Shown in pieces: positions 25,142-57,634 of a stretch of DNA of 64,000 bases. The position numbers and the translations under genes are program-made. The first letter of the stretch is position 1; every line of letters starts with the position of its first letter. The notes under the pieces were generated by a model. The model worked only from the letters and a program-made list of their open reading frames with translations, did not search any database and was not told the DNA's origin. The DNA is from Candidatus Zhuqueibacterota bacterium (GTDB lineage Bacteria; Electryoneota; RPQS01), in contig JACRMR010000002.1 in the NCBI GenBank assembly GCA_016214895.1, positions 1 to 64,000 on the forward strand. The letters run 5' to 3'.

Positions 25142-25172
25142 GGGCGCCTACGCCGTAACAGACGACGAACAA

Positions 25173-25209
25173 AGGCCGCGGGCAACAGCCCCGCGGCCTC
25201 TCTCTTCAT
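25173..25209 (+). terminator. hairpin GGCCGCGGG-caacag-CCCGCGGCC followed by TCTCTCTTCAT; probable operon-end terminator
   Basis: 9-bp perfect stem. The U-tract is interrupted by C, hence moderate confidence. Confidence 0.45.
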
Positions 25210-25219
25210 AAACTCCGGG

Positions 25220-34090: not shown

Positions 34091-34524
34091 TAGAGATCGC
34101 AGACAAAGTAAATCTTTACCATCCCCGTCTCCTTAGTAACGCGGAAGCCGTGGTACGTGACCGCTTTGACGTCGTATTTCAACTCGTGGCGCGTCGGGTC
34201 GAGGGGTTCGCCACCCAGAACTACCTGTAATTCGTTACAATCTTTAGAGTTACAATTTGTCATGTATTTTACCGAGCATGGCAACCAGCGTCTCGCAGAT
34301 ATAAGATAAATAATTTCATTAAGATAGGCGATCATCCGCCGATCTACATCTTCGTCAGCTATCCACAACGGAAACTGTTCTCGCTCTTCAATCGTATCAA
34401 GCGGAACCAACTGAGCCACCAGTCCAAGAGAGGCATTGGCCAGTGCCTCCAATTCGTCGGCGCCCCAAGCCTCAACTGCGAGGTCGCCGGAGTGGTCAAC
34501 TGCCCGGAATCGTTTGTCGATCAT
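34090..34524 (-). CDS. archease (RtcB activator), 144 aa
   Basis: Archease signature RAVDHSGDLAVEAWGADELEALANASLGL. Stop overlaps the rtcB start (TAATG), giving the canonical archease-rtcB pair. Confidence 0.8.
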   Translation of the reverse strand: MIDKRFRAVDHSGDLAVEAWGADELEALANASLGLVAQLVPLDTIEEREQFPLWIADEDVDRRMIAYLNEIIYLISARRWLPCSVKYMTNCNSKDCNELQVVLGGEPLDPTRHELKYDVKAVTYHGFRVTKETGMVKIYFVCDL

Positions 34525-34707
34525 GGACTTGGGTATTTCTGTGGATATGTGGATAACTCCAATATTTACGGAACCTTTACAATCCGCTGCGCGTTACATT
34601 TCGTAACCCGTTTGAGCAAAATAGTACATGCGATTCCCGCTGCGCAAGCCCTTGAGTTGACATAAAGATAGTCACTTTCTGCGATGGAAAAAAGTGGGGA
34701 AAAGGCA

Positions 34708-34736
34708 TTGACAATCCTCGCAGAATTCACTATAAT
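34708..34736 (+). promoter_or_regulatory. consensus sigma70 promoter TTGACA-17-TATAAT for the downstream OMP gene
   Basis: Perfect -35 and -10 hexamers with 17-nt spacer. SD GGAGAAGG before the ATG at 34779. Confidence 0.65.
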
Positions 34737-34778
34737 ACCTGCCGATTTTCCCCAACCAACACCGGAGAAGGAACCCCT

Positions 34779-35951: not shown

Positions 35952-35974
35952 GCTCGCGTAGTTGGCAGTTCTCA

Positions 35975-36010
35975 GCCGGCTCACGGGTTCCCGTGAGCCG
36001 GTTTTGTTAT
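35975..36010 (+). terminator. rho-independent terminator (CCGGCTCACGGG/CCCGTGAGCCGG + TTTTGTTAT)
   Basis: 11-12-bp GC-rich stem followed by a T-tract, 24 nt after the stop codon. Confidence 0.7.
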
Positions 36011-38213: not shown

Positions 38214-38276
38214 TGTCTCACCTCGATATGTAGGAAGCGGGCGCGGCCTGGCAGCCCGCGCCGAAAAACCGATTCG

Positions 38277-40295: not shown

Positions 40296-40572
40296 CTGGG
40301 AGGGGGTACGGTTCTGTACGACAAGGAGCGGCGGTTCGCCGTCCGGACAATCCGGTTGAATATACCCTCCTTTCAATCAAGGGTCAAGGCTACACCCCTG
40401 TTTTCCACACGATGACAGACCCCCCGGGGCGCCCGGGTGTGCAAGATTTTCAGCCGCTTGGCTGGTAGCCAGACCCCAACCCAAAAGAGAGGCACAGCGT
40501 TCGCCGTGCCTCTCTTCATCAATGCCTCCGCCGCAGTCGCGCAAGAGTGCGGGGAGATGTGCTGCGCGTGGC

Positions 40573-43143
40573 CTATTTCATCAAGATCATCTTCCGCAAC
40601 TGTGAAAAGTCGGCGGCCTCGATCCGGTACAGATATAGTCCGGACGGCAGTCCCTGCGCCGCAAACTCGACGCGATGGCGACCGGCATCCTGCCGGCCAT
40701 TCTGCAACACGGCGATTTCGCGGCCCAGCACGTCGAAGACGCTGAGCTTCACGTGTCCGGCTTCCATCAAGTCGTACACGATGGTCGTGGACGGATTGAA
40801 CGGATTCGGGAAGTTCGCATGCAGTTTGTATTCGCTGACCGTCTGCGGGTCAGCGGCGGTCACCGCGACCGAGCGCTCCGCGACGATGGAACGGTGTCCG
40901 TTCACATCGACCGTGAGGAGTCGATAGGCGTAGGTCGTGCCGATCAGCACCTCCGCGTCGCTGAATGCATAGTTGCGCGTTTGCGTGGACGTGCCTGCGC
41001 CGTCGAGCCGCTCGATCATGAGCCACTCGCCGCGAATCTGCTTTTCGATCTCGAAAGAGCGGTTATCGCGTTCACTCGCGGTGCTCCACTCGAGTCGAAC
41101 TTCGCCATTGCCCGCGAGCGCCGGTTGATGCGCTGCCGAGAATGAAAGCAGTTCGACGTCGAGTTGCAGATCTCGAATCAAATAGTCTTCGACTTCGCCC
41201 AAGACCGGATCCACGCCGGCCTGCGCTTCGATGCAGCCCGGAGCGGAAGACATGAGCCGGAAGCGCAAGCGACCCTGATAGCGCCCGATATCCGTGACGC
41301 CGGGGTCGGGAAAACAGAATTGCAGTGTCTGAGTTCCATTGGCCTCCATCGGCGGAACGAGCGCGCCCTGAATAATGCACTCCGAAGCCTGGCCGTTGCA
41401 AAGCACGTCATCCCAACTGCAATCCAGATCCCCGTCTTTCCAGCCATAGATGTACATCGGCTCGCCAAAGTAGAACGGGCCGGTTCGCACCGTCACCCTC
41501 ACGCAGACGTTCGCGCAGGGCTCCCACGGCGTCAGCAGAAACTCCACGCCGTCGTCGCCTGCGTCCGTGTCGGGTACGTTCGGTACGTCCTCGGCGGTGA
41601 CCGTGTCCCCCAACCACGCCAGCGGAAGCGCCTGGACCACATTGGCCGGGCCGCCTGTCTCTAACGTTCCCAGCGGATAGCCCAACTGACACTCGGGCAC
41701 CTGAATGTCGCCGAGGTCATACACTTCCGGGACCTGCGGACCGCACGGACCGCGAATGATCGACGGAAATTGCAGCGTGGCGTGGTCCAGACTCAGGGTT
41801 CCCTGGGCGTCCACGGCATAAACCTCGACCAGCCAGATGTCGTCGATCTCCGTGTCAGCCGCCGGAATACAGCTTCCCGAGTGATCCACCGGATGCAACG
41901 GATTCCACTCGTCGTCCACAAATCCGCCGTTGGTCTGATCGTTCATCACGAACCAGCGGTACTGATAGGTAACCGCGTCGCCGTCGGGGTCGGCAGGCTG
42001 CGGTCCGGTCACCAGAACGCATAGATCCTCATCCGCGGTGTAGCACGGTCCGCTTTCCACCAGCGGAGTGTAGGGCGGCTGGTTGCAGGCCTGCGTCCGA
42101 TAGCGGACAATCAATTGCGACCAGTGAACCGTCGTCGCCCACGTGCAGGTGTAGTTCCAGACGTCGATGTCCAGAAACATTTCCAGGCCGCCGTCCGCCA
42201 GCAGCGCCCCGGGCGATACGTCGAACGTCGTTACCGCCCAGTCGCCATCGTTCCCTTGCAAATAGTTCGGATTCAGGAGCACCGCGTCCGCGAAGAGATT
42301 GTCGAGCTCGCAAGCCTGCGGATTGTTCGGATGCAATTCACTGCAATCGCTCTGATCGACATCGTATGAGCAGACGACGATCTCCACCGACTGCACGCAC
42401 ACCCCGCCTTCGGCATTGTAACCCGGCCAAGTGTGGAGCCAGCCGTAATCCTGATCGTACCAACTGTAGATGTCGAAGCCGTACTCGGTCATGCCGGAGA
42501 CGCAGGGATTCGATCCCGCCGGGTACGGACCGCCATACAGCTCCGTGCCCGCGTCCGAGGCATCGACGGTCTGCACGTACGTCAGCGTACCGTCGCCGTT
42601 GTCATGCACGCCGTCGGCCAACTGCACTTGCTCGCACGTGTTCCGGCACTGCGAAATATCGAGCGTGTACGGCCCTTCGCCCCCGGCGGTGCGCGGCTCG
42701 ATGATCAACCAGTACGTGCCTGCCGTCAGGGGCACGCAGTCAATGCGTGCCGGGCCGAAGGTCGTGCCACAGCCGTCGTCGTTCGTCGCGATCGTGCTGC
42801 CGCTGCAACAGCCCGTCTTGATGTAGATCTGGGTGTTCGTGGCGGCGGGTCCGTCGCAGAGCGAAAATGTGTATTCGTCCGCCACCGTCACCACGACTTG
42901 ATAGATGTGCTCCTGGCCGGAGCGCACCAGACAATCGTTCACCGCGTCCACCAGCGTCGATTCGTGGTGATAGGGGAACGAAGTCACATTGAAGTCCGCG
43001 AGGCACGTGCGCGGACCGTCGTCCAGAATCGTACCGGTCTCGGTCCGGTCGGCCGCCTGCAGCTCATCCCAGTCGGAGGCTGCGGCAATCCCAAAGATCC
43101 CGAGCAGGCAAATCAACAGCAAAATCGGATATAGGTTCTTCAT
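40573..43143 (-). CDS. secreted Cys-rich PPC-like domain protein with T9SS C-terminal sorting domain (~856 aa)
   Basis: SD AGGAGG 9 nt upstream of MKNLYPILLLICLLGIFGIAAA. PPC-like block (IYQVVVTVADEYTFSLCDG...NDDGCG...AGTYWLIIE...GPYTLDI). CTD ANFPNPFNPSTTIVYDL...SVFDVLGREIAVL...SGLYLYRIEAADFSQLRKMILMK. Confidence 0.8.
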   Translation of the reverse strand: MKNLYPILLLICLLGIFGIAAASDWDELQAADRTETGTILDDGPRTCLADFNVTSFPYHHESTLVDAVNDCLVRSGQEHIYQVVVTVADEYTFSLCDGPAATNTQIYIKTGCCSGSTIATNDDGCGTTFGPARIDCVPLTAGTYWLIIEPRTAGGEGPYTLDISQCRNTCEQVQLADGVHDNGDGTLTYVQTVDASDAGTELYGGPYPAGSNPCVSGMTEYGFDIYSWYDQDYGWLHTWPGYNAEGGVCVQSVEIVVCSYDVDQSDCSELHPNNPQACELDNLFADAVLLNPNYLQGNDGDWAVTTFDVSPGALLADGGLEMFLDIDVWNYTCTWATTVHWSQLIVRYRTQACNQPPYTPLVESGPCYTADEDLCVLVTGPQPADPDGDAVTYQYRWFVMNDQTNGGFVDDEWNPLHPVDHSGSCIPAADTEIDDIWLVEVYAVDAQGTLSLDHATLQFPSIIRGPCGPQVPEVYDLGDIQVPECQLGYPLGTLETGGPANVVQALPLAWLGDTVTAEDVPNVPDTDAGDDGVEFLLTPWEPCANVCVRVTVRTGPFYFGEPMYIYGWKDGDLDCSWDDVLCNGQASECIIQGALVPPMEANGTQTLQFCFPDPGVTDIGRYQGRLRFRLMSSAPGCIEAQAGVDPVLGEVEDYLIRDLQLDVELLSFSAAHQPALAGNGEVRLEWSTASERDNRSFEIEKQIRGEWLMIERLDGAGTSTQTRNYAFSDAEVLIGTTYAYRLLTVDVNGHRSIVAERSVAVTAADPQTVSEYKLHANFPNPFNPSTTIVYDLMEAGHVKLSVFDVLGREIAVLQNGRQDAGRHRVEFAAQGLPSGLYLYRIEAADFSQLRKMILMK

Positions 43144-43282
43144 GCGTCTTACCTCCTTGGTCATCCGTTGTCGGTAACCACTTCATACCTGCAATGCACG
43201 CGTATCTGTTTTCGGCGCCCGGGCCGACCCGCCGGAATCCGGACTACTTCTCCGAATCCCGCCTCCAAGGGTGGAGGGGGGG

Positions 43283-43311
43283 TTGACTTTTGGGCGGCTA
43301 ACTCGTAAATT
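43283..43311 (+). promoter_or_regulatory. sigma70-like promoter TTGACT-17-TAAATT for tRNA-Phe
   Basis: -35 at 43283-43288 and -10 at 43306-43311. The tRNA 5' end is at 43323. Confidence 0.5.
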
Positions 43312-43322
43312 CTCGCTCCCAT

Positions 43323-43398
<76 letters not shown>

Positions 43399-43407
43399 AG
43401 GCAAATG

Positions 43408-43439
43408 GCCCGCAGATCTCCGGATTTGCGGGCTTTTGA
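43408..43439 (+). terminator. rho-independent terminator after tRNA-Phe (GCCCGCAGATC...GGATTTGCGGGC + TTTTGAT)
   Basis: Approximately 11-bp stem including G-U pairs, followed by TTTT. Confidence 0.7.
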
Positions 43440-43779
43440 TTGTCCGCTTGTGATTCCGGTCCACCATAGTTAGTCGATTCGCTACGGCCCAAATGTACTC
43501 CACGATTTACCGTAAGTCAATAATGAATAACTCTTTATTGCATAATGCAATCATCGTGTGCTGAGTGCCACCGATCCCAACAGATTTCAAGGGCTTGCGA
43601 CCCCATGAAGCATGTCAAGCCAAATAAGAACCTAAAGTTAAAGTGGGCATTTGGGCCACTAATAGACACGGTGCCGGCCGCCTCTGCCTCCTCAAGCGAG
43701 GCAATCTCCCGTGGGCTCGGTGAACAGGCTGACTGGTCGGACCGACCGCGGGTCGAGATCGCTATATCCGGCCGTGGCC

Positions 43780-43828
43780 TTGACTATTCTCCTCTCAGAT
43801 GTTAAATTATGTAAGGCCTTACGTAATA
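43780..43828 (+). promoter_or_regulatory. promoter TTGACT-17-TAAATT overlapping a 12-bp perfect palindrome GTAAGGCCTTAC; probable MarR autoregulatory operator
   Basis: -35 at 43780-43785, -10 at 43803-43808, palindrome at 43811-43822, immediately upstream of the ATG at 43853. Confidence 0.5.
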
Positions 43829-43852
43829 TCTAACCATCAGAGCATCCTCCGC

Positions 43853-44857
43853 ATGGACCTAATCGATACCCTCGGATACCTCGCGGTCGGCAGCCGCCTC
43901 CGCCGACTCAGCGACCGCTTCATGCGGGACGCAGCGCGGGCCTACGAATCCCAGGAGCTCGACTTCGAGCCGCGCTGGTTTCCCGTTTATTATTTGGTGC
44001 TGAAGGCGCAGCAGCCGATCACGGTTACCGAAATTGCCAAGCGACTCGGAGTCACGCACCCCGCCGTCGTCCAGATTGTCAAAGACATGAGTCGCGAAGG
44101 TGTCATCCTGACCGACGAGGGCAAAGCGGATCGCCGGCAGCGGCTCGTCACGCTTTCGGAAAAGGGCCGGCGAATGGCCCCGCCGCTCGAAATACTGTGG
44201 GACGATATTCGCCAAGCGACCGTTGAGCTCGTGCGCGAAACCGATCTCGATCTGATCGCGGTTTCCGAGACGCTCGAAGCCGCGCTCGCCAAACGCGGCG
44301 TGTTCGAGCGCGTACAGGAACGCGTCAAGGCGCGTCAATTGGACGCCGTGCGGATTGTTGATTACCGCCCGACCTTTCGCGCGCTGTTCCGCACGCTCAA
44401 TGAAGAGTGGCTGCGGAAATTCTTCGTGCTCGAACCACACGATGTCGAAATGCTCTCGGATCCGGAGGGCTGCATCATTGCGCGCGGCGGCGTCGTGCTG
44501 TTCGCGGAACTCGAGGGCGAAATCCTCGGCACCTGCGCGTTGCTGCCGCACGCGCCACACGTCTTTGAGCTGGCCAAGATGGCGGTGACGGAACGAGCGC
44601 AGGGCAAACAGATCGGCAGGAAGCTCGCGCTCGCCGCGATTGAGCGGGCGCGAACGCTGCAAGCGAACGCCGTTATCCTGGAAAGCAGCACTAAACTCGG
44701 GCCCGCGCTGGCCCTCTACGAAAAGCTGGGCTTCCGCCATGTGCCGCGTGAACGCCCCTCCGCATACGCCCGCGCGGATGTCTTCATGCGGCTGGAGCTC
44801 GACGGATCCGCTCGACGGGCGGAAGGTTCCGCACCGCACGCGAAGCCGGCGAATTGA
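43853..44857 (+). CDS. MarR-family winged-helix regulator fused to a GNAT N-acetyltransferase domain (~334 aa)
   Basis: MarR HTH (ITVTEIAKRLGVTHPAVVQIVKDMSREGVI...DRRQRLVTLSEKG). GNAT motifs (ELAKMAVTERAQGKQIGRKLALAAIERAR...LYEKLGF). The ATG at 43799 lies inside the promoter, so 43853 is preferred. Confidence 0.75.
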   Translation: MDLIDTLGYLAVGSRLRRLSDRFMRDAARAYESQELDFEPRWFPVYYLVLKAQQPITVTEIAKRLGVTHPAVVQIVKDMSREGVILTDEGKADRRQRLVTLSEKGRRMAPPLEILWDDIRQATVELVRETDLDLIAVSETLEAALAKRGVFERVQERVKARQLDAVRIVDYRPTFRALFRTLNEEWLRKFFVLEPHDVEMLSDPEGCIIARGGVVLFAELEGEILGTCALLPHAPHVFELAKMAVTERAQGKQIGRKLALAAIERARTLQANAVILESSTKLGPALALYEKLGFRHVPRERPSAYARADVFMRLELDGSARRAEGSAPHAKPAN

Positions 44858-45035
44858 CGAGCAACGCTAACTGCTCGGCCCGTGACGGGGTTCGGTACTA
44901 AACTTCGCTCTATGCAACCGCTCCAAGTCGTTATCGCCGCGGTGTGCGGACGCTTGCAGTCCGGCGCCCGGCCTGCCGCTCAGGAACTCCTCGCTCGTGA
45001 TTCCGCACATCAATCACATCGCTTATGAGGCCCGT

Positions 45036-46724
45036 ATGACTACTCGCACGCTGCTCCTGCTCGCCAGCATGATCCTGCATGGTTCCGCGAATGCCGTAAC
45101 GCGCAACGTCCCGGCGCAATATGCGACGATCCGAGAGGCAATCGTGGCTGCCGATCCCCACGATACCGTGCTCGTCGCCCAGGGTACTTACGCCGAGAAC
45201 CTGAACTTCTACGGCAAGAATATCGTGGTCGCGAGTCACTATGTGCTCGACGGCAATCCGCTCACGGTCCGTCAGACGACGATCGACGGCAGTCAGCCCG
45301 TTGACCCCGATTCCGGTTCCGTTGTCGCCATCATTTCCGGCGAAGACGGAACCGCGGAATTGGCAGGCTTCACGATCACCGGCGGCACGGGGATGCCACT
45401 CGAAGATGACGACAACCACAGTTTCTACGTGGAGGGTGGCGGGATCATCATCGAGAATTCCACACCCTATGTTCATCACAATTTGATTGTCGGCAATGCC
45501 GCATCACGGCGACCCGCCGGAATCACGAGCGCGGGCGGCGGCGGGATCCGCTGCGGCTTCAGCGACGGCACGCGCATCCTGAATAACGTGGTGATCGGCA
45601 ACAGCGGCCGCTACGGCGGCGGCATTGTCATCAATTATGCAATCGCCGAAGTGAGCAACAATATTATTGCGCTCAACTCCGGCGGTCAGGATTACGGCGG
45701 CGGAGGGTTGTGGACCAACGGCGCCCAAAGTGATACCCTTTTCGTCTGGAACAACACGATTGTGGGAAACAGCTCCGCGCTGCCCGGCGGCGGCATTCGC
45801 CGCTTCAGCCAACGGATCATCGGCGGCAACAACATCGTCTGGGGAAACCGGTCCGCGCAAGGCGGCGCGCAAATACACGGCGGCGGAGCGTCGCTGCTCC
45901 TGACCTATAGCGGCGTACAGGGCGGCTATGCCGGGACCGGAAATATCACGGACTATCCCGGCTTCGCCGATTCGCTGCTGGCGCTACTCGACGGCTCACC
46001 GTGCGTGGACAGCGGCGATCCGAATCCGATCTTCAATGATGCCAATGGCACGCGCAATGACATGGGCGCCTATGGCGGACCGCGCGCAACCGGCTTCAGT
46101 TTTGACAGCCCCCCGACGGTCTCGGCGCCCGCGTCCCGGCTGGCGAGCAGTGCGGGCCCGGGATCGGTTGATACGATCGGAGTCGCGATTTCAAATTTCG
46201 GATTGACAACATTACTGATCGAAAACGCGTCTTTCGTGACGGGCGAATCCAACGGGCTGCGAGTGGTCAATACTCCGATGCAGGTCCGCCCGGTTGCCGT
46301 TGACAGCTTGTACGTGCGCTGGGCGGCGCCGGGAAGCACTGACGTGTTTGATACCCTGCTGATCTTCCACAACGATCCGGCAGCGATGAATCCGGCGCGC
46401 ATCGCATTCCACGGTCAGCTGTCGGCGGCCGCGGATCCGCGTCGTGAATCCGCCGTGGCTGGGGACCTGTGGATGTCGCAGAACTTCCCGAATCCGTTCA
46501 ATCCGGAAACCGAGCTTCGTTTCACCCTCCCGTACGATACGCACGTCGTGCTCCAGGTCTTTGATCTCGCGGGGCGGTTGACCACCACGCTCGTCGCCGG
46601 CAGGTACGCTGCCGGGAGCCACACCATCAAATGGGACGCAGGCGACACGCCCACCGGTATGTACTTTGCCCGCTTGACGGCGGGAAACCAAACCGTCATG
46701 CTGAAGATGCTCTTGCTCAGATGA
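45036..46724 (+). CDS. right-handed beta-helix protein with T9SS C-terminal sorting domain (562 aa)
   Basis: Signal peptide MTTRTLLLLASMILHGSANA. Beta-helix repeats (GGGIRCGFSDGTRILNNVVIGNSG...). PbH1-like DMGAYGG segment. CTD SQNFPNPFNPETELRFTLP...VFDLAGRLTTTL...GMYFARLTAGNQTVMLKMLLLR. Confidence 0.8.
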   Translation: MTTRTLLLLASMILHGSANAVTRNVPAQYATIREAIVAADPHDTVLVAQGTYAENLNFYGKNIVVASHYVLDGNPLTVRQTTIDGSQPVDPDSGSVVAIISGEDGTAELAGFTITGGTGMPLEDDDNHSFYVEGGGIIIENSTPYVHHNLIVGNAASRRPAGITSAGGGGIRCGFSDGTRILNNVVIGNSGRYGGGIVINYAIAEVSNNIIALNSGGQDYGGGGLWTNGAQSDTLFVWNNTIVGNSSALPGGGIRRFSQRIIGGNNIVWGNRSAQGGAQIHGGGASLLLTYSGVQGGYAGTGNITDYPGFADSLLALLDGSPCVDSGDPNPIFNDANGTRNDMGAYGGPRATGFSFDSPPTVSAPASRLASSAGPGSVDTIGVAISNFGLTTLLIENASFVTGESNGLRVVNTPMQVRPVAVDSLYVRWAAPGSTDVFDTLLIFHNDPAAMNPARIAFHGQLSAAADPRRESAVAGDLWMSQNFPNPFNPETELRFTLPYDTHVVLQVFDLAGRLTTTLVAGRYAAGSHTIKWDAGDTPTGMYFARLTAGNQTVMLKMLLLR

Positions 46725-49685: not shown

Positions 49686-51050
49686 ATGAATATTTTGCTG
49701 CAACACCTCGCTGCCGTGTTCCAATCCGCGGAGCGCGAACTGCGCGATGCCGATATCCTACTCAGCGATGAACGGATCGTCGAGGTCGGGCAGGCGATCG
49801 AACCGCCCGCAGGGGCACAAGTTATCGATTGCCGGGGTAAGGTAGCGATCCCGGGACTTATCAACTGCCACCACCATTTCTTTCAGATTCTCACCCGCTG
49901 TTTGCCCGGTGCGCAGGACGCGAAGTTGTTTGACTGGCTGGTCTTCCACTATCCCGTCTGGCGGCACATGAATCCCGCGGCGTTCCGCGCCGCCAACAGG
50001 CTGGCGATTTGTGAATTGCTGCTCACCGGCTGTACGACGACCTCGGATCACCTCTACCTCTTTCCGCAGGCCCAGTCCGAGGATCCGCTGTCGCTGCAAG
50101 TCGAGAACGCGCGCGAACTCGGCATCCGCTATTGTGGCACTCGCGGCTCCATGTCACGCGGCCGCTCGCAGGGCGGTCTCCCGCCGGACGATTTGTGCGA
50201 AGCTGACGAGCGCGTCCTCCTCCACAGCGAAGATTCGATTCGTCGTTATCATGATCCGCGGCCATTCGCCATGTCGCAACTGCACCTCGCCCCTTGCAGT
50301 CCGTTCAATGTCACGCGTGACCTGCTGATCCAGACGGCGCGACTGGCCCGCAAACACGGCGTCCGGCTGCATACACATCTGGCCGAGACGACCGACGAGC
50401 ACGAGTACTGTCGCGAAGTTTACGGCTGCACTCCCCTCGAACTCATGGAACAGGTCGAGTGGCTTGGACCCGATGTATGGTTCGCGCACGGCGTCTGTTT
50501 TTGCGATGCCGAGCTCGACGCACTGGCGACCGCGCGATGTGGAATCTGTCATTGCCCGTCCAGCAACATGCGCCTCGGGTCGGGCGTGGCGCGGGTTCCC
50601 GAGATGCTGTTGCGGGATATTCCGCTCGGCCTCGGTGTGGATGGCAGCGCGTCCAACGACAGCTCGGATATGCTGGGCGAACTCAGACAGGCGATGCTGC
50701 TCGCCCGAATGAACTATGGCGCCGCCGCGATGAATGCGCGCACGGTCTTGCGGATGGCCACCGAAGGGTCCGCACGCCTGCTCGGTCGGCCTGAACTGGG
50801 CCGGATCGAACCGGGAATGGCGGCGGACATCGCGGTTTTCGACGTGGAACGTCTCGGCTTCGCCGGGGCCGCCGATCCTATCGCTGCCCTGCTGTTCTGC
50901 GGCTTCGACCACCGGGCCTGGCTCGTCATGGTCAACGGGCGAATCCTCGTCGAGAAGGGCCGCCTGACCACCGCGGACGAAACCCAGATTGCCGCCGATG
51001 CCGTTCGAGAGGCACGAGCGATGTGGGCAAGATCCGGCGTGATTCGGTAG
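49686..51050 (+). CDS. metal-dependent amidohydrolase of the 8-oxoguanine deaminase/chlorohydrolase (TRZ/ATZ-like) family (454 aa)
   Basis: HxH motif in AIPGLINCHHHFFQILTR. Downstream HTH...AET, FAHGV, VGLGVDGSASNDS motifs fit the amidohydrolase family. Specific substrate not determinable. Confidence 0.8.
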   Translation: MNILLQHLAAVFQSAERELRDADILLSDERIVEVGQAIEPPAGAQVIDCRGKVAIPGLINCHHHFFQILTRCLPGAQDAKLFDWLVFHYPVWRHMNPAAFRAANRLAICELLLTGCTTTSDHLYLFPQAQSEDPLSLQVENARELGIRYCGTRGSMSRGRSQGGLPPDDLCEADERVLLHSEDSIRRYHDPRPFAMSQLHLAPCSPFNVTRDLLIQTARLARKHGVRLHTHLAETTDEHEYCREVYGCTPLELMEQVEWLGPDVWFAHGVCFCDAELDALATARCGICHCPSSNMRLGSGVARVPEMLLRDIPLGLGVDGSASNDSSDMLGELRQAMLLARMNYGAAAMNARTVLRMATEGSARLLGRPELGRIEPGMAADIAVFDVERLGFAGAADPIAALLFCGFDHRAWLVMVNGRILVEKGRLTTADETQIAADAVREARAMWARSGVIR

Positions 51051-51292
51051 CTGGTTGTACCGGATCAGTCTGCCAGAACCGTTGCGGGAGAGCAGCGTAT
51101 CAAAACGTTATATTTCAGGTCGAAATGGTGAAATGACAGATTCGGGCTCACATGACTCGCTGCGTCCAAGACCGATACCGAATCGGCCGGGCCGCACAAC
51201 GGCCTATTGCATTTTCGCCCGCTCGTCCTATCTTGTCAGGATTGAATCGATCTTGACCCATTCCTAAGATTAACGACCCGGCTGCCATAATC

Positions 51293-52237
51293 GTGACCAA
51301 CTCTTCCGATAGTCGCCTCGATGAAGACCTGCGCGATCTGACCGAGCTTCGCGCCGGATCGCAAGGCGCCGCCAACCGGCTGATCAACAGGTACCAGAAA
51401 CCCCTTACAGGCTTCGTGCTCGGACACTGCACTTGCGCCCGCGATCAAGCCGCCGATCTCGTGCAGGAAATCTGGATCCGCACACTTCCCGAACTGACCA
51501 AGCCCGCAGATGCCGGGGGCTACGATCCCGCCAAAGGGTCGTTCTATACTTTTCTGATTAACCGCCACGCTCGCTATCTCGTCCTGCAGTTCATCGATCG
51601 CACACGCCGCCGCCCGGAATCCGTGGTTGCATCGGCGGATGATGGTGCCGTGGAATCGCGATCCGCGCTGACCGACGAGCAGGACAATGCTGAGTCCCTC
51701 CTCATCAAGCGCGAGGAGCTGCGCCGGCGCCACGATCTGCTCACCGAGTGCTTTCGGTTGACCTTTCTCCACGGCGGCTATCCCCATCAAGTACTCGCCT
51801 TTGGATTCTCCAAACTCATCCTGGGCCAATCTACGCGTCGCGACTCCGTGAACTCGGCCGCCGGCGCTAAACGCAGACGCGAGATCGAAGGCGATCCGCA
51901 ACGGCTGGATACCGAACGTGGCGGAGAGGACCTGAAGCAGCTTGCGGACGCCTTCTGGGAGTGTTTTCAGCGCGGCTCCGGGCTCGATCAGCCCGCTTTG
52001 GACCGCCTCGCCCAGGCGATGCAACCGACTCGCAACAGCCTCCCGCTGACCGTCGAACAAATGGCGGTCGGCAACCGTCTCTTTCTGGACCATCATGCGG
52101 CCATCGCCGGACGAATCGTCGGCCAGACCGCCTTGCGGGACTACTATGGCGCCCGCGGCCTGAATGCGATTGCCGACTGGTGCGACAAGGTCCAGAACCG
52201 GGTTCGTGATAGGCTTGGAGTAGGTCGGCATAAGTGA
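51293..52237 (+). CDS. ECF-type sigma-70 family sigma factor with ~130-aa C-terminal extension (314 aa)
   Basis: Region 2 motifs DLVQEIWIRTL and FYTFLINRHARYLVLQFIDRTRRR. Degenerate region 4. Long C-terminal tail. Confidence 0.65.
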   Translation: MTNSSDSRLDEDLRDLTELRAGSQGAANRLINRYQKPLTGFVLGHCTCARDQAADLVQEIWIRTLPELTKPADAGGYDPAKGSFYTFLINRHARYLVLQFIDRTRRRPESVVASADDGAVESRSALTDEQDNAESLLIKREELRRRHDLLTECFRLTFLHGGYPHQVLAFGFSKLILGQSTRRDSVNSAAGAKRRREIEGDPQRLDTERGGEDLKQLADAFWECFQRGSGLDQPALDRLAQAMQPTRNSLPLTVEQMAVGNRLFLDHHAAIAGRIVGQTALRDYYGARGLNAIADWCDKVQNRVRDRLGVGRHK

Positions 52238-52356
52238 CCGGCCCGGACTCCGCAATCTCGTGCATGATTCCTCGCCCGCTTTCGACCTGTCCCGCGAGAA
52301 CTCCGCCCCCCCTGCGTAATTGAGCATGAACTCCCGATGCCAGTCGGATCATTAGC

Positions 52357-53145
52357 ATGAATCACCTCAACGACAACATCCTCTTGGCCTACGTGGCTAA
52401 TGAGATCGCCGATGACGTCCGGATCAGTACGGATCGGCATCTCAGCGAGTGTGACGATTGTGTTCGACGTGTCCGCGCACTACTCGCCCTGCGCGGTTCC
52501 TTCGAGGAGGTCTGGATGTCCTGGAGCGCGGATGAACATGCGCGCATCGCGCGTCAATTGCAATTGCTGCAGGCGCTGAATCCTGCCACCGAGTCCTTGT
52601 CGAAACGCGCGGCCGAGTGGCTGAGCGCGATTTCCGCGGGTGCCGAACTCGCTGTCAGTGTGCTGTTGCATCGCGGCGAGCGTGTCGCCGGACTCGCAGC
52701 GAGCAGCCTGCCGCCCGCATTCCGATTCGAATTTCATCCGGCCATCTCCGGCGTCGGCTCGCCCGCCGAAGAAGCACTGCTCGATCGCATGATTGCCGAC
52801 AGCAGCGTGGCGCTCGCGGACCATCAGACCGAACGGGCGCTGGCCGCGCTGCGAGAGGTTTCGCACATCAATGCGATCGTGGCGCAGTCCGCGTCGTCGA
52901 TCATCTACCGCGATAACCGTAAGTACGCGGAAATTGTGGCTGACGGCCGCCGCGGATCGCTGATGGTCAAACACTGGCCGGGCCCGAATCCATCCGCGGA
53001 ATACGTCCTGCTGATCCCCGCCGACCCGACGAAACTCCCCGCGCTCGGTGTGCTCGCTGCGGTCGCAGGCGAAGAGTATTTGCTGGCGGCCTTTGCCGAC
53101 TTTCCCGACGGCGCCTGTGATGTGATTATCGGGCCGTCGCGCTAA
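52357..53145 (+). CDS. zf-HC2 (ChrR/RsrA-like) putative anti-sigma factor (262 aa)
   Basis: N-terminal MNHLNDNILLAYVANEIADD...HLSECDDCVRRV matches the zf-HC2 anti-sigma signature. It is adjacent to the sigma gene. Confidence 0.65.
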   Translation: MNHLNDNILLAYVANEIADDVRISTDRHLSECDDCVRRVRALLALRGSFEEVWMSWSADEHARIARQLQLLQALNPATESLSKRAAEWLSAISAGAELAVSVLLHRGERVAGLAASSLPPAFRFEFHPAISGVGSPAEEALLDRMIADSSVALADHQTERALAALREVSHINAIVAQSASSIIYRDNRKYAEIVADGRRGSLMVKHWPGPNPSAEYVLLIPADPTKLPALGVLAAVAGEEYLLAAFADFPDGACDVIIGPSR

Positions 53146-53205
53146 TTCCCCAAGCCCTCCGCAATCGCCCGTGCCCGCTTCGCGTTCCGCCGAGCGGGCC
53201 ATTCC

Positions 53206-55170
53206 ATGTTACATCCCGCAACCCCACAAGACCTCCCGCACGAGCGCGTCAGAATCGTCATCATCCCGGCCGATGGCATTCGAGCGCCCATCGAACGCGT
53301 GTTCGCTCAGCCGGTGATTCGCGTCGGACGACCCGATCCGGCCAATCCCGGCCAAGCGCCCGAGCTGAACTTGCATCCGGACATGACGGTGAGCCGGGAG
53401 CATGCCACGATTCTGCGTCAGGGTGCACGCTGGCTCGTCGAAGATCAACGGAGCAAGCACGGTACCGCCCTCAACGGGAAACAAATTCAAGGCGCCGGCG
53501 CCGTTGAAATTCCGTTCGGCGCGCTGATCCGAACCGGCGATTCGCTGTGGACGTTGATCCCGGAAGATTGGTGGTCCGTGCCGTTCGACTCCGTCCTGAT
53601 CGTGGCCCCCTGTGCACGCGTCCTCAACTACGCATCGTATCATTGCGGCATGCCGATCATGCCGCGACTGGTCGCGATCAACACGGCGCGCAGCGTGTCA
53701 CGCCCGTTCATGCTGCGGCTGCAGGTCTCCGGACTTTCGACTCCCGTGGACATCCGAGTGGCGCCACTCGAACCTGAAATGTCGCGGGAAATCGCCGTGC
53801 CTGCCCTGGCGTTTGACACGGCTTCACTGCGCGCGCAGATCGAACCCATCCGCGCCTCGATCCGGTTGGACTATGAAGCCAAACTCGGAGTCGAGCCTTC
53901 CGTGGATACCTTGGGCGGCCGCGGCGCGCTTCCGCAATACCCGCCTGATGCGACACCGCTCCGGTTGCGTGGTGAGCGCGAGCTGACGGTGCTGGGCTTC
54001 TGGGACTGGCCGTATGATTCCGCTTCACGACGCACGATCGCGGCGTTCGTTACCCCGCGCAATCCGGCCGTCGAACGGATCATAAACGAAGCACAAGCTA
54101 AGCCCGGCGCACGCGCGTTTCGTGAACTCCTGCGGACCGGTGCCCCTGACGCCGAACTCGAAATTCTCCGCTCCTTATACGACTTTCTGGCCACGCAGCG
54201 GTGTATTCACTATGAGGATCCGAAGCTCAAGTCCGGCGTGGCGTTGACCCCCTATCAGTCGATTCGATCCCCGCACCGCATCTTTCACGGTGATAACCCC
54301 CGCGATCCCGGGCGCGCCACCTGCATCGACCTCGCGGTGTTGTTTGCCGCGTGTCTCGAGCATGTCGGGCTGTGCCCCTTGATCATCTTCTCCGGTGCCG
54401 CTGATATCGCGCCGCGTCACGCGCTCGTCGGAGTGTGGGTCGGTTCGACACCGGGAGGTCAACCGGTCATCGACGATCAGGCCATGCTGATCCGCGAAAT
54501 CCGCTCCGGCCGGATGCACACGGTCGAAGGCACCGGAGTCACCCTCGATGTCGGTGGCGGCAAACCGCGCCTCGCGTTCGCCGATGCGGTCGCGCAGGCC
54601 GCCGCGCTGATCGAACGCGCCGCATGGGTGAGCGCCGTCGATGTGCTGGCGTTGCGGCCGCCGCACGGCACCATTACGCCACTTGAGAATGCCTACGAAC
54701 CGGAAGTCGCGCGTATCTATGACGAGTGCCGGCGGCTGGCGACCGTGCAGGGAGCGCGACATGTGGAGACCGGGCATCTCTTTTGCGCGATCATCACGGC
54801 AGGCGGGGAAATCACCGACCGCTTGTTCTCGCGCATGAATCTGAATCTTGCCGAAATGCGCGCGGCGGTCCGGGGACCCGAATTGGCCCGCGAGGGCATT
54901 TTGCGCGTGGTCGCGACGCAAAACGTGCTCGAGACGCAGCAGCTGGCGTTCAACTTTGCGCGCGATGCCGGTTCGCCCTCCGTGCGCGAACAGGATTTGC
55001 TCTGGGCCGTCATGCAAAAGGCGCCGCTCAGCCCCAAGCTGCAGGACCTGCTGCGCAAGTTGCAAATTGACCTGGCGCGCATGCGCGAACTGCTCGCCGA
55101 CGAGTTTCCCTCGCCGTTGCTGGCGGCGACCGGCGTGTTCGCAAATGAGCGCTTAGGCCAAGCCGAATGA
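53206..55170 (+). CDS. multidomain FHA - transglutaminase-like (TGc Cys/His core) - Clp-N-repeat protein (654 aa)
   Basis: FHA domain (VIRVGR...DMTVSREHATIL...WLVEDQRSKHGTALNGKQI). TGc-like GRATCIDLAVLFAACLEHVGLCPLIIFSG...HALVGVWV. Clp-N-like repeats (ARHVETGHLFCAII..., SPSVREQDLLWAVMQ). Stop overlaps the next start (ATGA). Confidence 0.7.
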   Translation: MLHPATPQDLPHERVRIVIIPADGIRAPIERVFAQPVIRVGRPDPANPGQAPELNLHPDMTVSREHATILRQGARWLVEDQRSKHGTALNGKQIQGAGAVEIPFGALIRTGDSLWTLIPEDWWSVPFDSVLIVAPCARVLNYASYHCGMPIMPRLVAINTARSVSRPFMLRLQVSGLSTPVDIRVAPLEPEMSREIAVPALAFDTASLRAQIEPIRASIRLDYEAKLGVEPSVDTLGGRGALPQYPPDATPLRLRGERELTVLGFWDWPYDSASRRTIAAFVTPRNPAVERIINEAQAKPGARAFRELLRTGAPDAELEILRSLYDFLATQRCIHYEDPKLKSGVALTPYQSIRSPHRIFHGDNPRDPGRATCIDLAVLFAACLEHVGLCPLIIFSGAADIAPRHALVGVWVGSTPGGQPVIDDQAMLIREIRSGRMHTVEGTGVTLDVGGGKPRLAFADAVAQAAALIERAAWVSAVDVLALRPPHGTITPLENAYEPEVARIYDECRRLATVQGARHVETGHLFCAIITAGGEITDRLFSRMNLNLAEMRAAVRGPELAREGILRVVATQNVLETQQLAFNFARDAGSPSVREQDLLWAVMQKAPLSPKLQDLLRKLQIDLARMRELLADEFPSPLLAATGVFANERLGQAE

Positions 55171-56984
55171 CAACGGTGCTGCCCGCCGTCCTCGCCGCTC
55201 TTTGTTACCCGCTGGCCGCCGGCCTCTGCCTGTTCGCCCTCGCGCGCTTCCTCTATCCTACTCCCGCCCGGGTCAATGCGGTGTTCAGTCAATATCGCCG
55301 GCCCCCGAAACTCCGCAAGCTGATTGTTGCCTGGTTTCTGATCATGGTGGGCGTGTTCATCGCCGTACAGGTCATCCGTGTCCCGATCCTGTTCAGTACG
55401 CTCGATCGGATCGCCGGGCAGCAAGCGGGGTCGTGGAAATCGGTCGTGGGCGTGATCGGATTCTGCGGTTTGATCGCGACGGAACTTGTGATCGCGGCTA
55501 ACTGGCTCATCTACATCGGGTACGCATGGCTGGGTGCTTCGCGATATCAACTGCCGGTCCCGCAGCCCGGGAATTCGCGCGTGGTGCCCGTGGCCGTGGT
55601 CATTGCCTGCTGCGATGAGGACCCGCGGATTCTCGAACGCAGTCTATCGTCGTGCGCCCGACTGAATTACCCCGACTTCGAGGTGTTCCTCCTTGAGAAC
55701 TCCCGGCGACCTGACGCCAAAGCCGCGGCGATCGATCTGGCGAAGCGCTGCGGCGCGACGATCATTGATCTGCCGAACCGCGGCCATAAGCAGGGCGCCA
55801 TGAACGATGGCGTGCCCTTCATCGACCGCCGCTATGAATACTGGGCCGTGCTGGATGCCGATCAGCGAGTCCGCCGGAATTTCCTCGGTGAGCTTGTCCC
55901 GCTCTTGAGCGGCGATGAGCGGGTCGCGTTCGTGCAGACGCCGCAGTTCTACGAGAACTCCGACGAATCCTGGTTGACCCGCGCGGCCGCGCAACAGGAG
56001 ATGCTCTCCTACGATACCGTGATGGAGGGCAAGGGCGCGCTCGAACGCGCGATGTGTTGCGGCACCAACTACGTGATTCGACGCTCGGCCATCGAAAGCG
56101 TCGGCGGCTACGATGAAACCTCGCTGTCCGAAGATATGATCATGTCGTATCGCCTGCATTGCGCTGGCTGGAAATCGCTCTTTGTGCGCCGGGCCTATGC
56201 GTTCGGGATCGGGCCGCGGGACCTGTCGGCGTACTGGAAACAGCAGCGACGCTGGGTGATCGGCAACACGACCATCGCCAAGGAGATCGTCCTGTCGGCG
56301 TTCTCCGCGCGACGCAAGCAGATTCCGTTGAGCGTCGGCATCGAATACTTGTGGAGCTCCGGCTACTACATTGCCACGTTGCTGCTGGCCGCGCTCGCTA
56401 CCGTGCCGATGCTCATGTTGACCTATCATCTCCTGCGCTTCGGGATCGACGCCACGTTTCCCGTCGGCGGCGGTTCGGAATGGCTGTACCTCTCCGTGCT
56501 GCCCTTCTACGCGGTGGTGATGGCCTTTCCCTATCTGCATATGCGACTGCGCGGCTACCGGCTGCGACACCTGCTCATGGTGCAGGGAATCCTCGCCGTG
56601 ACCATGCCCGTTTATGCGACCGGAGTGCTTCGTGCATTACGCAAACGGGATATGAAATGGGACGTCTCACCGAAGGCGCGCGGAGCGCGGATCAACCTCC
56701 TCACATCGCCGCAAACCTATGTATTTCTTGCGGCGCTGGCGGTTGGTTCCGTTCTTGCCTTTCGCCTCGGTGAGCGGCCCCAGGCACCGCTCGGCTGGGT
56801 CGCGTTGTTCTGGCTGTTCTTCTATACGATCAGCTTCGGACACTTCTTCTTCTATGCCGCAAATCCGCGGGCGGACGCCGCGCTTGAGACCGACCTGCCC
56901 GAAGACACGACCGCAGTTGATCACAGTTACGCGGAGGCGGAAGGAACTGCATCCGCGTCACGCAGGGAGGCGATTCCTGAATGA
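55167..56984 (+). CDS. family-2 processive glycosyltransferase, cellulose-synthase-like membrane synthase (605 aa), no PilZ domain
   Basis: Motifs VIACCDEDP (D,D), VLDADQ (DxD), QTPQFY, SEDMIMSYRL (TED), QQRRW (QxxRW). Multiple TM helices on both sides of the catalytic domain. The C-terminus lacks the RxxxR/DxSxxG PilZ motifs. Confidence 0.85.
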   Translation: MTTVLPAVLAALCYPLAAGLCLFALARFLYPTPARVNAVFSQYRRPPKLRKLIVAWFLIMVGVFIAVQVIRVPILFSTLDRIAGQQAGSWKSVVGVIGFCGLIATELVIAANWLIYIGYAWLGASRYQLPVPQPGNSRVVPVAVVIACCDEDPRILERSLSSCARLNYPDFEVFLLENSRRPDAKAAAIDLAKRCGATIIDLPNRGHKQGAMNDGVPFIDRRYEYWAVLDADQRVRRNFLGELVPLLSGDERVAFVQTPQFYENSDESWLTRAAAQQEMLSYDTVMEGKGALERAMCCGTNYVIRRSAIESVGGYDETSLSEDMIMSYRLHCAGWKSLFVRRAYAFGIGPRDLSAYWKQQRRWVIGNTTIAKEIVLSAFSARRKQIPLSVGIEYLWSSGYYIATLLLAALATVPMLMLTYHLLRFGIDATFPVGGGSEWLYLSVLPFYAVVMAFPYLHMRLRGYRLRHLLMVQGILAVTMPVYATGVLRALRKRDMKWDVSPKARGARINLLTSPQTYVFLAALAVGSVLAFRLGERPQAPLGWVALFWLFFYTISFGHFFFYAANPRADAALETDLPEDTTAVDHSYAEAEGTASASRREAIPE

Positions 56985-57335
56985 GCGGACTCCGGTTTTC
57001 GCCAAAATAGCATTCGATTTTCGATGCTTGTTGATGACAAACGCCTCGCGGATTCGCTGTGAAGATTTTTGCATCCGCCCGGAACCCGGAGCCGGTTACG
57101 CGGGTATCATCAACGTCAGACAGTCAGCAAACGACACGACTCAGCTGCCGCTTTCGCGGAACTGATTACGCATAAGTTTAAGGCGTGCCGTGGAGATCAC
57201 CGACGACGGAGGCCACGTCGTAGTTTCTTCTCGGGCCGCGGCTCGCCGCCAATTTCGCGTGGTAGGGTAGGACCGGTCTTCGACGGCTGGAACCGCGCTT
57301 CCCAGACTCAGGCCTCCTCCACGCGCATCAATAGT

Positions 57336-57376
57336 GACCGGGTCATCAACTTGCTGGTGACCCGGTTTCTTTTTGC
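57336..57376 (+). terminator. terminator-like hairpin (ACCGGGTCA-N12-TGACCCGGT + TTCTTTTTG); a second hairpin at 57394-57416
   Basis: 9-bp stem followed by a T-run, ~350 nt after the GT2 stop. Second hairpin GCCTCTCC-atcccac-GGAGAGGC. Confidence 0.45.
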
Positions 57377-57492
57377 CTCTCTTCCATATTCAAGCCTCTC
57401 CATCCCACGGAGAGGCGTTGTCTTATCATAGCTGACCCACTGGCATGTTCTATACATAAGTATTTTAATAATTTATGTAAATACGATGCGAC

Positions 57493-57574
57493 TTGACAAT
57501 ATGCTGTTTTATTACTAAACTATGTTCAGTGACTGAAACACGATTACCGACCATGTAGTCAATTAAGGTAATCG
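57493..57574 (+). promoter_or_regulatory. promoter TTGACA-17-TAAACT plus 8-bp inverted repeat CGATTACC-N18-GGTAATCG in the leader; putative TetR operator
   Basis: -35 at 57493-57498, -10 at 57516-57521. Inverted-repeat arms at 57541-57548 and 57567-57574. A further inverted repeat TACATAA-N13-TTATGTA at 57453-57479. Confidence 0.5.
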
Positions 57575-57634
57575 ACGCAGAATTCCGTTAGCTCGCGCAG
57601 GCACACACCGAGCTGAGCCTGACGAGAGGCACAC

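Follow-up and report, generated by a model that had tools for sequence, protein, structure and literature searches.

A possible phospho-threonine-dependent sigma/anti-sigma switch encoded with a PilZ-less BcsA-like synthase in a KSB1 bacterium

The four-gene locus and its products

In the stretch of DNA analyzed here (the window, 64 kb) a sigma-like protein, an anti-sigma-like protein, a 654-aa FHA protein and a family-2 glycosyltransferase (GT2) are encoded one after the other on the same strand (Table 1). The positions of the open reading frames agree with the four co-directional genes described in a previous sequence-only reading of this locus. The ATGA overlap named there could be read directly in the sequence and supports the proposed translational coupling of the GT2 to the 654-aa protein. 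The first of two hairpins downstream of the GT2 gene is probably the 3' end of the four-gene unit; the second hairpin and a sigma-70-like promoter ahead of a TetR gene lie beyond it, and the promoter is located beyond both. The GT2 gene is flanked by the FHA gene on one side and by a TetR/efflux operon on the other. The overlap or short spacing between the FHA and GT2 genes, together with a terminator that follows only after the GT2 gene, argues for co-transcription. A 363-aa antisense ORF at 51236-52327 was rejected as a real gene, because the product of the plus strand has conserved homologues and sigma matches.

Table 1. Coordinates of genes, protein domains and signals at the locus (positions in the window).
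Feature	Position	Strand	Basis or remark
Divergent sigma-70-family (ECF-like) sigma factor, 314 aa	51293..52237	+	Region 2 match, family profile
Soluble zinc-finger (ZAS/ChrR-type) anti-sigma-like protein, 262 aa	52357..53145	+	zf-HC2/ChrR matches, ligands
FHA-transglutaminase-ClpN protein, 654 aa	53206..55170	+	
FHA domain, aa 1-120	53206..53565	+	Fold and HMM match
Ig-like beta-sandwich, aa 121-262	53566..53991	+	Disordered loop aa 228-244
Transglutaminase-like (papain-fold) core, aa 263-498	53992..54699	+	Q351, C373, H405, E441
Double Clp-N (Clp/Hsp100 N-domain) module, aa 499-654	54700..55170	+	Unattached to any AAA+ ATPase
ATGA overlap	55167..55170	+	GT2 start codon overlaps stop codon of FHA protein
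Membrane-embedded processive family-2 glycosyltransferase, BcsA-like, PilZ-less, 605 aa	55167..56984	+	Glyco_trans_2_3, motifs
Strong terminator-like hairpin	57336..57367	+	13 bp stem plus T-run
Second hairpin	57394-57416		3' of the terminator-like hairpin
Sigma-70-like promoter	57493-57521		Ahead of TetR gene

The sigma-like protein matched Pfam Sigma70_r2 with E=4e-5 and 23.6 bits, which is 0.4 bits under the gathering score of 24, and the NCBIfam ECF models matched aa 8-145 only. Comparison of the family profile (A4) with solved ECF sigma factors revealed similarity to AlgU-type proteins (1e-10) and RpoE (2e-8) over region 2 plus the linker. These matches support the assignment as an ECF sigma factor made in the sequence-only reading, with region 2 plus the linker as the detectable part. 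Acidic residues are retained in region 2.2, and D55 and Q58 are invariant in the alignment. For region 4 no Pfam, NCBIfam or PDB-profile match was obtained beyond aa 145. The C-terminal 170 aa are conserved across relatives (GGYPHQ...WCDKVQNRVR) and end in a VQNRVRxxL helix, whose sequence is reminiscent of region 4.2. The failure to demonstrate a region-4 DNA-binding domain counts against the switch discussed below.

The HMM scores of the anti-sigma-like protein are weak (zf-HC2 E=0.02, ChrR subfamily E=0.006), and its profile matched the N-terminus of ChrR with E=0.015. The protein contains an H-x3-C-x2-C motif plus an upstream His ligand; these ChrR-type zinc ligands (H3, H28, C32 and C35) align with those of ChrR and are invariant in 6 homologues, which supports the previous zf-HC2 anti-sigma call. 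An AGVGS/T segment at aa ~130-135 is invariant as well. The gene is located directly downstream of the sigma gene in 6 loci, and this synteny together with the fusions described below suggests that the 262-aa protein is the putative cognate anti-sigma factor. Its hydrophobic segments stay below threshold throughout, and it thus has no transmembrane segment. As the sigma, the anti-sigma and the FHA protein all lack a membrane segment, sensing is placed in the cytoplasm, and the control by envelope stress that had been suggested finds no support.

For the 654-aa protein, HMMs and invariant residues together with a confident AlphaFold model confirmed the proposed FHA, transglutaminase-like and double Clp-N domains. 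The Ig-like beta-sandwich (aa ~121-262) between the FHA domain and the core was absent from the domain list of the sequence-only reading. The FHA domain shows both an 11-stranded beta-sandwich fold and an HMM match. Among the positions that bind phospho-threonine in FHA domains, G41-R42, S63 and H66 are kept in most sequences (34-43 of 45), and the conserved FHA Asn is replaced by His in the window protein and is H, N or R across the family. Fold searches with the whole protein were swamped by FHA and Clp-N matches and a separate domain model was needed; the core has a transglutaminase/papain fold. Pfam Transglut_core and related HMMs did not match the window protein, a PDB sequence-profile search was without match, and DUF553 was matched by two of 21 relatives at E=0.056. 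Nevertheless, C373, H405 and Q351 are invariant in the 45-sequence alignment and the position of E441 is occupied by E in 41 and by D in 4 sequences. From these residues the core is predicted to contain a Cys-His-Asp/Glu catalytic triad, and their strict invariance argues for catalysis. The Clp-N region has the fold of a double four-helix repeat. A membrane helix at aa 371-398 was considered and rejected, because in the model this segment is a buried helix carrying C373.

The GT2 is 100% identical to a GenBank protein annotated as 'glycosyltransferase [candidate division KSB1 bacterium]' and matched Glyco_trans_2_3 (3e-27), Cellulose_synt (6.5e-10) and BcsA structures (2e-18); it has about 6 hydrophobic segments. 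With D150, D230xD232, E322-D323 and Q359QRRW363, all conserved across 31 orthologues, the full processive-synthase set claimed before is indeed in place (D, DxD, TED and QxxRW). The FxVTxK-like motif is followed by only about 100 residues, which include two hydrophobic segments. The absence of PilZ was likewise verified: PF07238 gave no match at E<=1, and PilZ is missing from the precomputed domains of the 31 orthologues. A distant 759-aa relative does carry PilZ.

Partners of the FHA protein in other genomes

An exhaustive representative search with the FHA protein resulted in 1153 matches at E<1e-3; with the threshold at E<1e-30, 135 clusters remained. The members are largely metagenomic, mostly about 600 aa long and of the same architecture. 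Word-indexed protein searches returned 3-5 matches even from a 45-sequence profile. Because of its diversity the 45-sequence alignment was unsuitable for finding loci, and one of 14 sequences was used instead; the sample is small, as this alignment yielded 3 genome and 6 metagenome loci only. The context analysis rests on about a dozen loci, most of them on short metagenomic contigs.

In the window and in L001, L002, L007, L008 and L013 the FHA gene is directly preceded by homologues of the sigma and the anti-sigma gene. Together with TPR Ser/Thr kinases, these two genes recur as partners of the FHA protein in the few loci where the context can be read. Kinase genes adjoin in three relatives: a Pkinase-TPR gene is located directly downstream of the FHA gene in L008, a Pkinase gene is convergent with it in L005, and in L007 the anti-sigma domain itself is fused to Pkinase-TPR. 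The protein P0007 combines Pkinase, TPR, FHA, core and ClpN in a single chain, and in P0117 the transglutaminase-like core is fused to a sigma factor of the window's sigma family (C-terminal half E=5e-17). The connection to Ser/Thr-kinase signalling expected in the sequence-only reading is therefore real, as in relatives the FHA protein or the anti-sigma has a TPR-Hanks kinase as neighbour or as fusion partner. The search for Hanks-type kinases suggested there was successful in the loci of the relatives and negative in the 64-kb window, where neither a kinase nor a homologue of the relatives' kinases was found. A phmmer search of the window with the three relatives' kinases and an FGE-sulfatase/TPR protein also revealed no counterparts.

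The four-gene arrangement was seen again in other contigs at protein identities of 39-60%, and this recurrence argues against chance. The repeated synteny at low identity, three independent fusion types and the overlapping codons also speak against a fortuitous adjacency of four unrelated co-directional genes, and the comparative data effectively refute it.

The position of the GT2 gene was analyzed separately. It follows the FHA gene in one KSB1-like clade only (window, L002, L003, L013 and the P0155 contig). L002 has a GTGA overlap equivalent to the ATGA of the window, and the spacing is about +30 in L013, +52 in the P0155 contig and +87 nt in L003. Neither the close relatives L001 and L006 nor L005, L008, L009 and L010, four distant loci whose downstream sequence can be read, have a GT2 gene next to the FHA gene; the contig of L007 stops just after the FHA gene. 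Orthologues at <=47% identity were always found in a PMT_2-GT2-658-aa operon without an FHA gene (five other loci), in which the 658-aa partner is a membrane/TPR protein. Searching the window with the PMT_2 and 658-aa partners using phmmer revealed no counterparts.

These data bear on the view, derived from the sequence-only reading, that the FHA protein serves the GT2 specifically, as a subunit or as a post-translational regulator kept stoichiometric by the coupling, and that phospho-threonine replaces control by PilZ and c-di-GMP. The overlaps in the window and L002, the short distances in L003, L013 and the P0155 contig, the lack of PilZ in the synthase and a linkage kept at 39-60% identity are in line with such a role. 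We nevertheless regard it as improbable, since no GT2 adjoins in L001, L005, L006, L008, L009 and L010, GT2 orthologues are instead coupled to PMT_2 and the 658-aa protein in five further loci, and all fusions in the family are with a kinase, an anti-sigma or a sigma and none with a glycosyltransferase. Thus, the synteny of the two genes holds within one clade and not in the other readable loci, and a specific partnership of the FHA protein with the GT2 is not supported. The restriction to a single clade, the secondary absence in L001 and L006 and the PMT_2 operon of the deeper orthologues suggest that the GT2 is an add-on.

A candidate switch and competing readings

From the earlier interpretation the domain calls, the lack of PilZ, the translational coupling and the kinase link can be retained, whereas the FHA-GT2 partnership and the envelope-stress control were given up. 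We propose instead, at roughly even chances, that the module is a cytoplasmic phospho-threonine-dependent sigma/anti-sigma switch, in which the FHA protein inactivates the anti-sigma factor and the GT2 is the co-transcribed output in this lineage. An activated kinase would phosphorylate a threonine, in the simplest case its own or one of the anti-sigma complex, and the FHA domain would dock the four-domain protein onto this mark. With the substrate held by the Clp-N and sandwich domains, the Cys-His-Glu core would inactivate the anti-sigma factor, most likely via cleavage, and the sigma factor, once freed, would transcribe its own operon. In the KSB1 lineage this operon may have acquired the PilZ-less BcsA-like synthase, whose translation is coupled to that of the third gene. 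The switch would then have polysaccharide synthesis as an output, without the FHA protein acting on it directly. A precedent is known from Mycobacterium tuberculosis, where phosphorylation of RseA by PknB is followed by its degradation through ClpC1P2.

Several results count against the switch. A kinase is missing from the window, the FHA genes of L005, L009 and L010 are not preceded by a recognisable sigma or anti-sigma gene, and the anti-sigma alignment shows no invariant Thr. Six sigma-upstream regions, a set too small and divergent for formal motif discovery, were compared by eye and had no promoter motif in common.

Cleavage of the anti-sigma by the core is purely an inference; the core could also act by transamidation, deamidation or binding only. 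The same module might accordingly work with a core that is a transamidase, a deamidase or a non-catalytic scaffold, while the kinase phosphorylates the sigma factor directly, as in EcfP/PknT. This we consider unlikely: the strictly invariant Q, C, H and E/D argue for catalysis, and the sigma factor keeps acidic residues in region 2.2, where D55 and Q58 are invariant. The phosphorylation-dependent ECF43 type differs from the window sigma in this respect. Moreover, an anti-sigma is conserved here, whereas kinase-linked ECF groups typically lack one and are thought to be phosphorylated directly (PMC7826278).

A different function was suggested by the middle 360 aa of the FHA protein: they match the N-terminus of 'anti-phage protein ProA' in NCBIfam (E=6e-27; hhalign probability 99.4%), and ProA retains the catalytic residues. 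In a conflict or anti-phage system the sandwich and the Cys-His-Glu core would form a threat-sensing or effector protease, and the sigma factor would turn on a defence, here surface polysaccharide. The relative P0152 shows a weak CHAT caspase-like match, and combinations of TPR kinases, FHA domains and peptidases with ECF sigmas have been described in bacterial conflict systems (PMC8195603). In contrast, no PADLOC model matched, the ProA score was 93.5 bits (cut-off 1500) with helicase and nuclease absent, and literature on ProA or anti-phage transglutaminase-like proteins was not found. The locus lies among housekeeping, efflux and T9SS genes in synteny with L002 and not on a mobile island. 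A defence function therefore appears quite unlikely to us.

Relation to known systems and implications

No description of a sigma/anti-sigma/FHA-transglutaminase-ClpN module was found in the literature, and searches for ECF/FHA/transglutaminase or ECF/FHA/kinase combinations revealed nothing on it. Clp N-domains are known from the SigE/RseA/PknB/ClpC1P2 system of M. tuberculosis, in which a Hanks kinase marks a cytoplasmic ZAS anti-sigma that is removed by a Clp N-domain machine. The window module would resemble it in the soluble ZAS-type anti-sigma, the link to a Hanks kinase and the Clp N-domain, but FHA, Clp-N and the putative Cys protease are combined in one ATP-independent polypeptide without AAA+ or ClpP. 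Stand-alone Clp-N proteins (plant ClpT1/2, mycobacterial ClpC2) differ, because Clp-N here forms the C-terminal part of a larger protein with signalling and enzymatic domains.

Ser/Thr-kinase-linked ECF groups comprise ECF43, ECF59-62, ECF217, ECF267 and ECF283, with EcfP/PknT of Vibrio parahaemolyticus as an example (PMC7826278). Like the window family they combine a group-4-like sigma with Hanks-type kinase neighbours, often with TPR repeats (PMC7826278). The window module differs by its conserved soluble ZAS-type anti-sigma, the FHA-protease-like-ClpN protein and a conserved 170-aa C-terminal half of the sigma without domain match. The words FHA and transglutaminase were not found in the main text of the ECF reclassification (PMC7826278). 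The anti-sigma-like protein is soluble like the ZAS proteins ChrR and RsrA and has an N-terminal H-x(24)-H-x3-C-x2-C ligand set, with weak sequence support (E about 0.02); its C-terminal 200 aa are unrelated to the cupin domain of ChrR, and in contrast to ChrR/RsrA a homologous domain is fused to a kinase in L007.

The GT2 shares the D, DxD, (T/S)ED, QxxRW and FxVTxK-like motifs and the membrane channel topology with BcsA, but lacks PilZ and has no BcsB-like neighbour among the scanned flanking genes, and its orthologues pair with PMT_2-type proteins. The CelA model TIGR03030 scored 103.7 bits at a cut-off of 699.1. With ProA (NF058533) the FHA protein has in common a module of about 340 aa, consisting of beta-sandwich and transglutaminase-like core with the same Q/C/H/E residues, and only positions 1-317 of the ProA model were matched. 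A genuine ProA reaches 1782 bits and continues into DUF4011, an SF1 helicase and a REase_MTES_1575 nuclease; it is related to Hhe and lacks FHA and Clp-N, whereas the window protein has none of this enzymatic body.

Tentatively, and with clearly less confidence than the switch as such, we suggest a widespread mechanism in which a single ATP-independent FHA protein destroys a soluble zinc anti-sigma by a Cys-His-Glu protease aided by Clp-N, with the sandwich-protease module reused as sensor head of ProA.

Kinase-linked ECF sigmas occur commonly in phyla that have been little studied, and the only mode demonstrated for them so far is that the sigma is directly phosphorylated. If the proposal is true, a conserved module with three or four parts (sigma, soluble anti-sigma, FHA-protease-like-ClpN protein and TPR kinase) would add phospho-dependent enzymatic removal of an anti-sigma. 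Its small size and solubility make the module directly accessible to tests in vitro and in E. coli. A family that spans over a hundred sequence clusters and has no family-level annotation would gain a function, and the role of the N-terminal head of the ProA defence protein would be hinted at. For KSB1 bacteria it would mean that the production of surface polysaccharide may be under the control of Ser/Thr kinases.

The four-gene unit and its proteins

The forward strand carries at 51293-56984 four ORFs of 314, 262, 654 and 605 aa, which encode a predicted sigma factor, a predicted anti-sigma factor, an FHA protein and a BcsA-like family-2 glycosyltransferase (GT2); the last two overlap via ATGA at 55167-55170. 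A 242-nt intergenic region separates the sigma ORF from the amidohydrolase gene. The 350 nt from the GT2 stop to the first hairpin contain no convincing ORF; in a relative with 75% identity, a 205-aa ORF was called in the region 3' of GT2. The hairpins and the promoter are followed by a TetR/OEP/MFP/AcrB efflux operon. An antisense ORF of 363 aa (GC3 0.68) spans the entire sigma gene; it most likely represents a shadow ORF opposite a high-GC gene. Homologues and sigma matches exist for the plus-strand product.

Features of the window and of two other loci
Feature	Position	Remark
Amidohydrolase gene	49686-51050	upstream of four-gene unit
Sigma	51293-52237 (+)	
Antisense ORF	51236-52327 (-)	
Anti-sigma	52357-53145 (+)	
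FHA gene	53206-55170 (+)	
GT2	55167-56984 (+)	
Lower-G+C intergenic region, 650 nt	56985-57634	3' of GT2
Terminator-like hairpin, 13-bp	57336-57367	3' of GT2
Second terminator-like hairpin	57394-57416	3' of GT2
Sigma-70-like promoter, 10/12	57493-57521	ahead of TetR gene
tRNA-Val(GAC) call, 93 nt	5542-5634	ARAGORN
T9SS-cargo ORF, 587 aa	5397-7160	
PorV-like gene	21822-22907	region 18745-26722
RtcB RNA ligase gene	32636-34090	
T9SS cargo genes	36228-46724	
tRNA	43323-43395	Rfam
PMT_2-GT2-~658-aa operon	L014 6499-11718	also L015-L020; Calditrichota and other MAGs
ProA, 1718 aa	L022 6944-12100	Acinetobacter baumannii plasmid pDETAB2; DUF4011 / SF1 helicase / REase_MTES_1575

The AlphaFold model of the FHA protein, calculated with a 45-sequence alignment as input, reached a mean pLDDT of 89.7 and a pTM of 0.89. 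In the alignment Q351, C373 and H405 are invariant across 45 of 45 homologues, and position 441 is E or D in all of them. Model and conserved residues confirm the FHA, transglutaminase-like and Clp-N domains assigned by the sequence-only reading, which overlooked a fourth domain, a beta-sandwich.

The GT2 motifs D150, D230xD232, E322-D323 and Q359QRRW363 are conserved in 31 orthologues, as is WDVSPK, its version of FxVTxK, and no PilZ domain was found in the protein; the earlier description of a catalytically complete synthase without PilZ was therefore correct. GT2 is 100% identical to the GenBank entry 'glycosyltransferase [candidate division KSB1 bacterium]', encoded on a 525-kb contig, and this naming fits the abundance of type IX secretion (T9SS) cargo proteins in the window.

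Region 2 and the linker of the sigma factor match ECF sigmas: a profile built from its own family hits an AlgU-type sigma at 1e-10 and RpoE at 2e-8. The conserved C-terminal 170 aa matched nothing searched and region 4 was not demonstrated; this 314-aa sigma is atypical. In the anti-sigma factor all four ChrR-type zinc ligands are invariant, although HMMs support the assignment only weakly; the protein has no membrane segment.

Elsewhere in the window, large ORFs of 1003, 745 and 500 aa surround the PorV-like gene, and none of the three matched Pfam at 1e-5. With the T9SS cargo genes included, this neighbourhood is rich in T9SS genes and encodes several large proteins that could not be annotated. 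The tRNA-Val call lies inside a T9SS-cargo ORF and is probably a false positive; Rfam at gathering threshold found only the other tRNA. The G+C content is lower at 1-2000 (0.52) and 34001-36000 (0.56) than elsewhere (~0.61), and the latter stretch adjoins the RtcB gene.

Distribution of the GT2 linkage

When the FHA proteins are arranged in a neighbour-joining tree, the GT2-linked loci L002, L003 and L013 form one branch and the window groups with L001 and L006 in the sister branch. Downstream of the FHA gene there is no GT2 at L001, which has 540 nt of non-coding-looking sequence, or at L006, where a convergent AcrB is located; at the more distant L005, L008, L009 and L010 kinases or TPR proteins follow instead. 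The FHA-gene/GT2 synteny, for which conservation had been the proposed check, is missing at these loci and limited to one clade. The contig of L007 stops just past the FHA gene.

GT2 orthologues with 56-75% identity are located behind an FHA gene. Those with 43-47% identity lie, in five of five examined operons, between PMT_2 and a ~658-aa membrane/TPR protein. Codons of adjacent genes overlap in these operons, which lack FHA and sigma genes; neither partner protein has a counterpart in the window. The tree, the absence of GT2 from the other loci and the PMT_2 operons therefore mark GT2 as a clade-specific addition behind the module. It probably moved there in a KSB1-like ancestor and was then lost in some descendants.

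The PMT_2 operon, in which PMT_2 is sometimes duplicated and the ~658-aa protein is multi-pass membrane with a TPR-like C-terminal region, adjoins pentose-phosphate and T9SS cargo genes and looks like an uncharacterised glycan-synthesis cassette. At L013 (4244-4302) the GT2 frame is homologous from ~4276, with ATC at the position of the orthologues' ATG; the first canonical start (GTG) lies ~25 nt past the ATC and the database gene call begins 130 nt later. Translation may thus begin at a non-canonical codon, or the ATC reflects an error in the sequence.

Partners of the FHA-protein family

The family is large (1153 matches, 135 at E<1e-30, mostly ~600 aa) and almost wholly metagenomic; gene context was readable for the small sample of about a dozen loci. 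Sigma and anti-sigma homologues lie upstream of the FHA gene in the window and at L001, L002, L013, L007 and L008. A Pkinase-TPR gene follows immediately 3' at L008, a convergent Pkinase lies beside the FHA gene at L005, and L007 encodes a fusion of the anti-sigma domain with Pkinase-TPR. The relative P0007 (1312 aa) is a single-chain Pkinase-TPR-FHA-core-ClpN fusion. In P0117 (768 aa) the core is fused to a sigma of the window-sigma family (C-terminal half, E=5e-17), a fusion that may be an assembly artefact of its 2.4-kb contig (L021 8-2314). Fusions of three independent types thus join the kinase, the anti-sigma, the sigma and the FHA protein in one predicted functional unit. Within the family, the distant relative P0152 (787 aa) shows a weak CHAT (caspase-like) match, and a subfamily of ~490 aa is without the FHA domain.

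According to the ECF reclassification, anti-sigma factors are typically missing from kinase-linked ECF groups, and its main text never mentions FHA or transglutaminase (PMC7826278). In contrast, the window module has a conserved anti-sigma factor; with this and its FHA/transglutaminase protein it is therefore a variant beyond that scheme.

The sandwich and core of the FHA protein also constitute the N-terminal ~340 aa of the NCBIfam 'anti-phage protein ProA' (hhalign probability 99.4%; Q, C, H and E kept), which is related to Hhe and for which a literature search found no describing paper. The two proteins have a common domain by homology and do not belong to one family. This common module would fit a defence-related system, but such a role is improbable, as PADLOC was negative and the four-gene locus is in conserved chromosomal synteny.

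Proposed signalling mechanism

We favor a signalling function. The sigma/anti-sigma pair is conserved, cytoplasmic and genomically linked to TPR Hanks kinases. The sequence-only reading had proposed a synthase wired to Ser/Thr-kinase signalling and envelope-stress sigma control; the kinase link stands, envelope-stress control is not supported, and the GT2 coupling is the trait of one clade. The third protein is a predicted phospho-threonine reader; its Cys-His-Glu core looks catalytically intact, and it also carries a Clp-N module for binding. Activation of a kinase would generate phospho-threonine and recruit the FHA domain, the core would then inactivate the anti-sigma factor, probably by cleavage, and the released sigma would transcribe its own operon, in the KSB1-like lineage including GT2. 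Weak points are that no kinase is encoded within the 64-kb window and no invariant Thr was seen in the anti-sigma alignment.

The closest functional precedent known is the ZAS anti-sigma RseA of M. tuberculosis, which is degraded by ClpC1P2 in a PknB-dependent manner. In contrast to this pathway, reader, binder and protease would here be one ATP-independent chain. The object of interest is thus the sigma / anti-sigma / FHA-transglutaminase-ClpN (/kinase) module rather than the synthase coupling itself.
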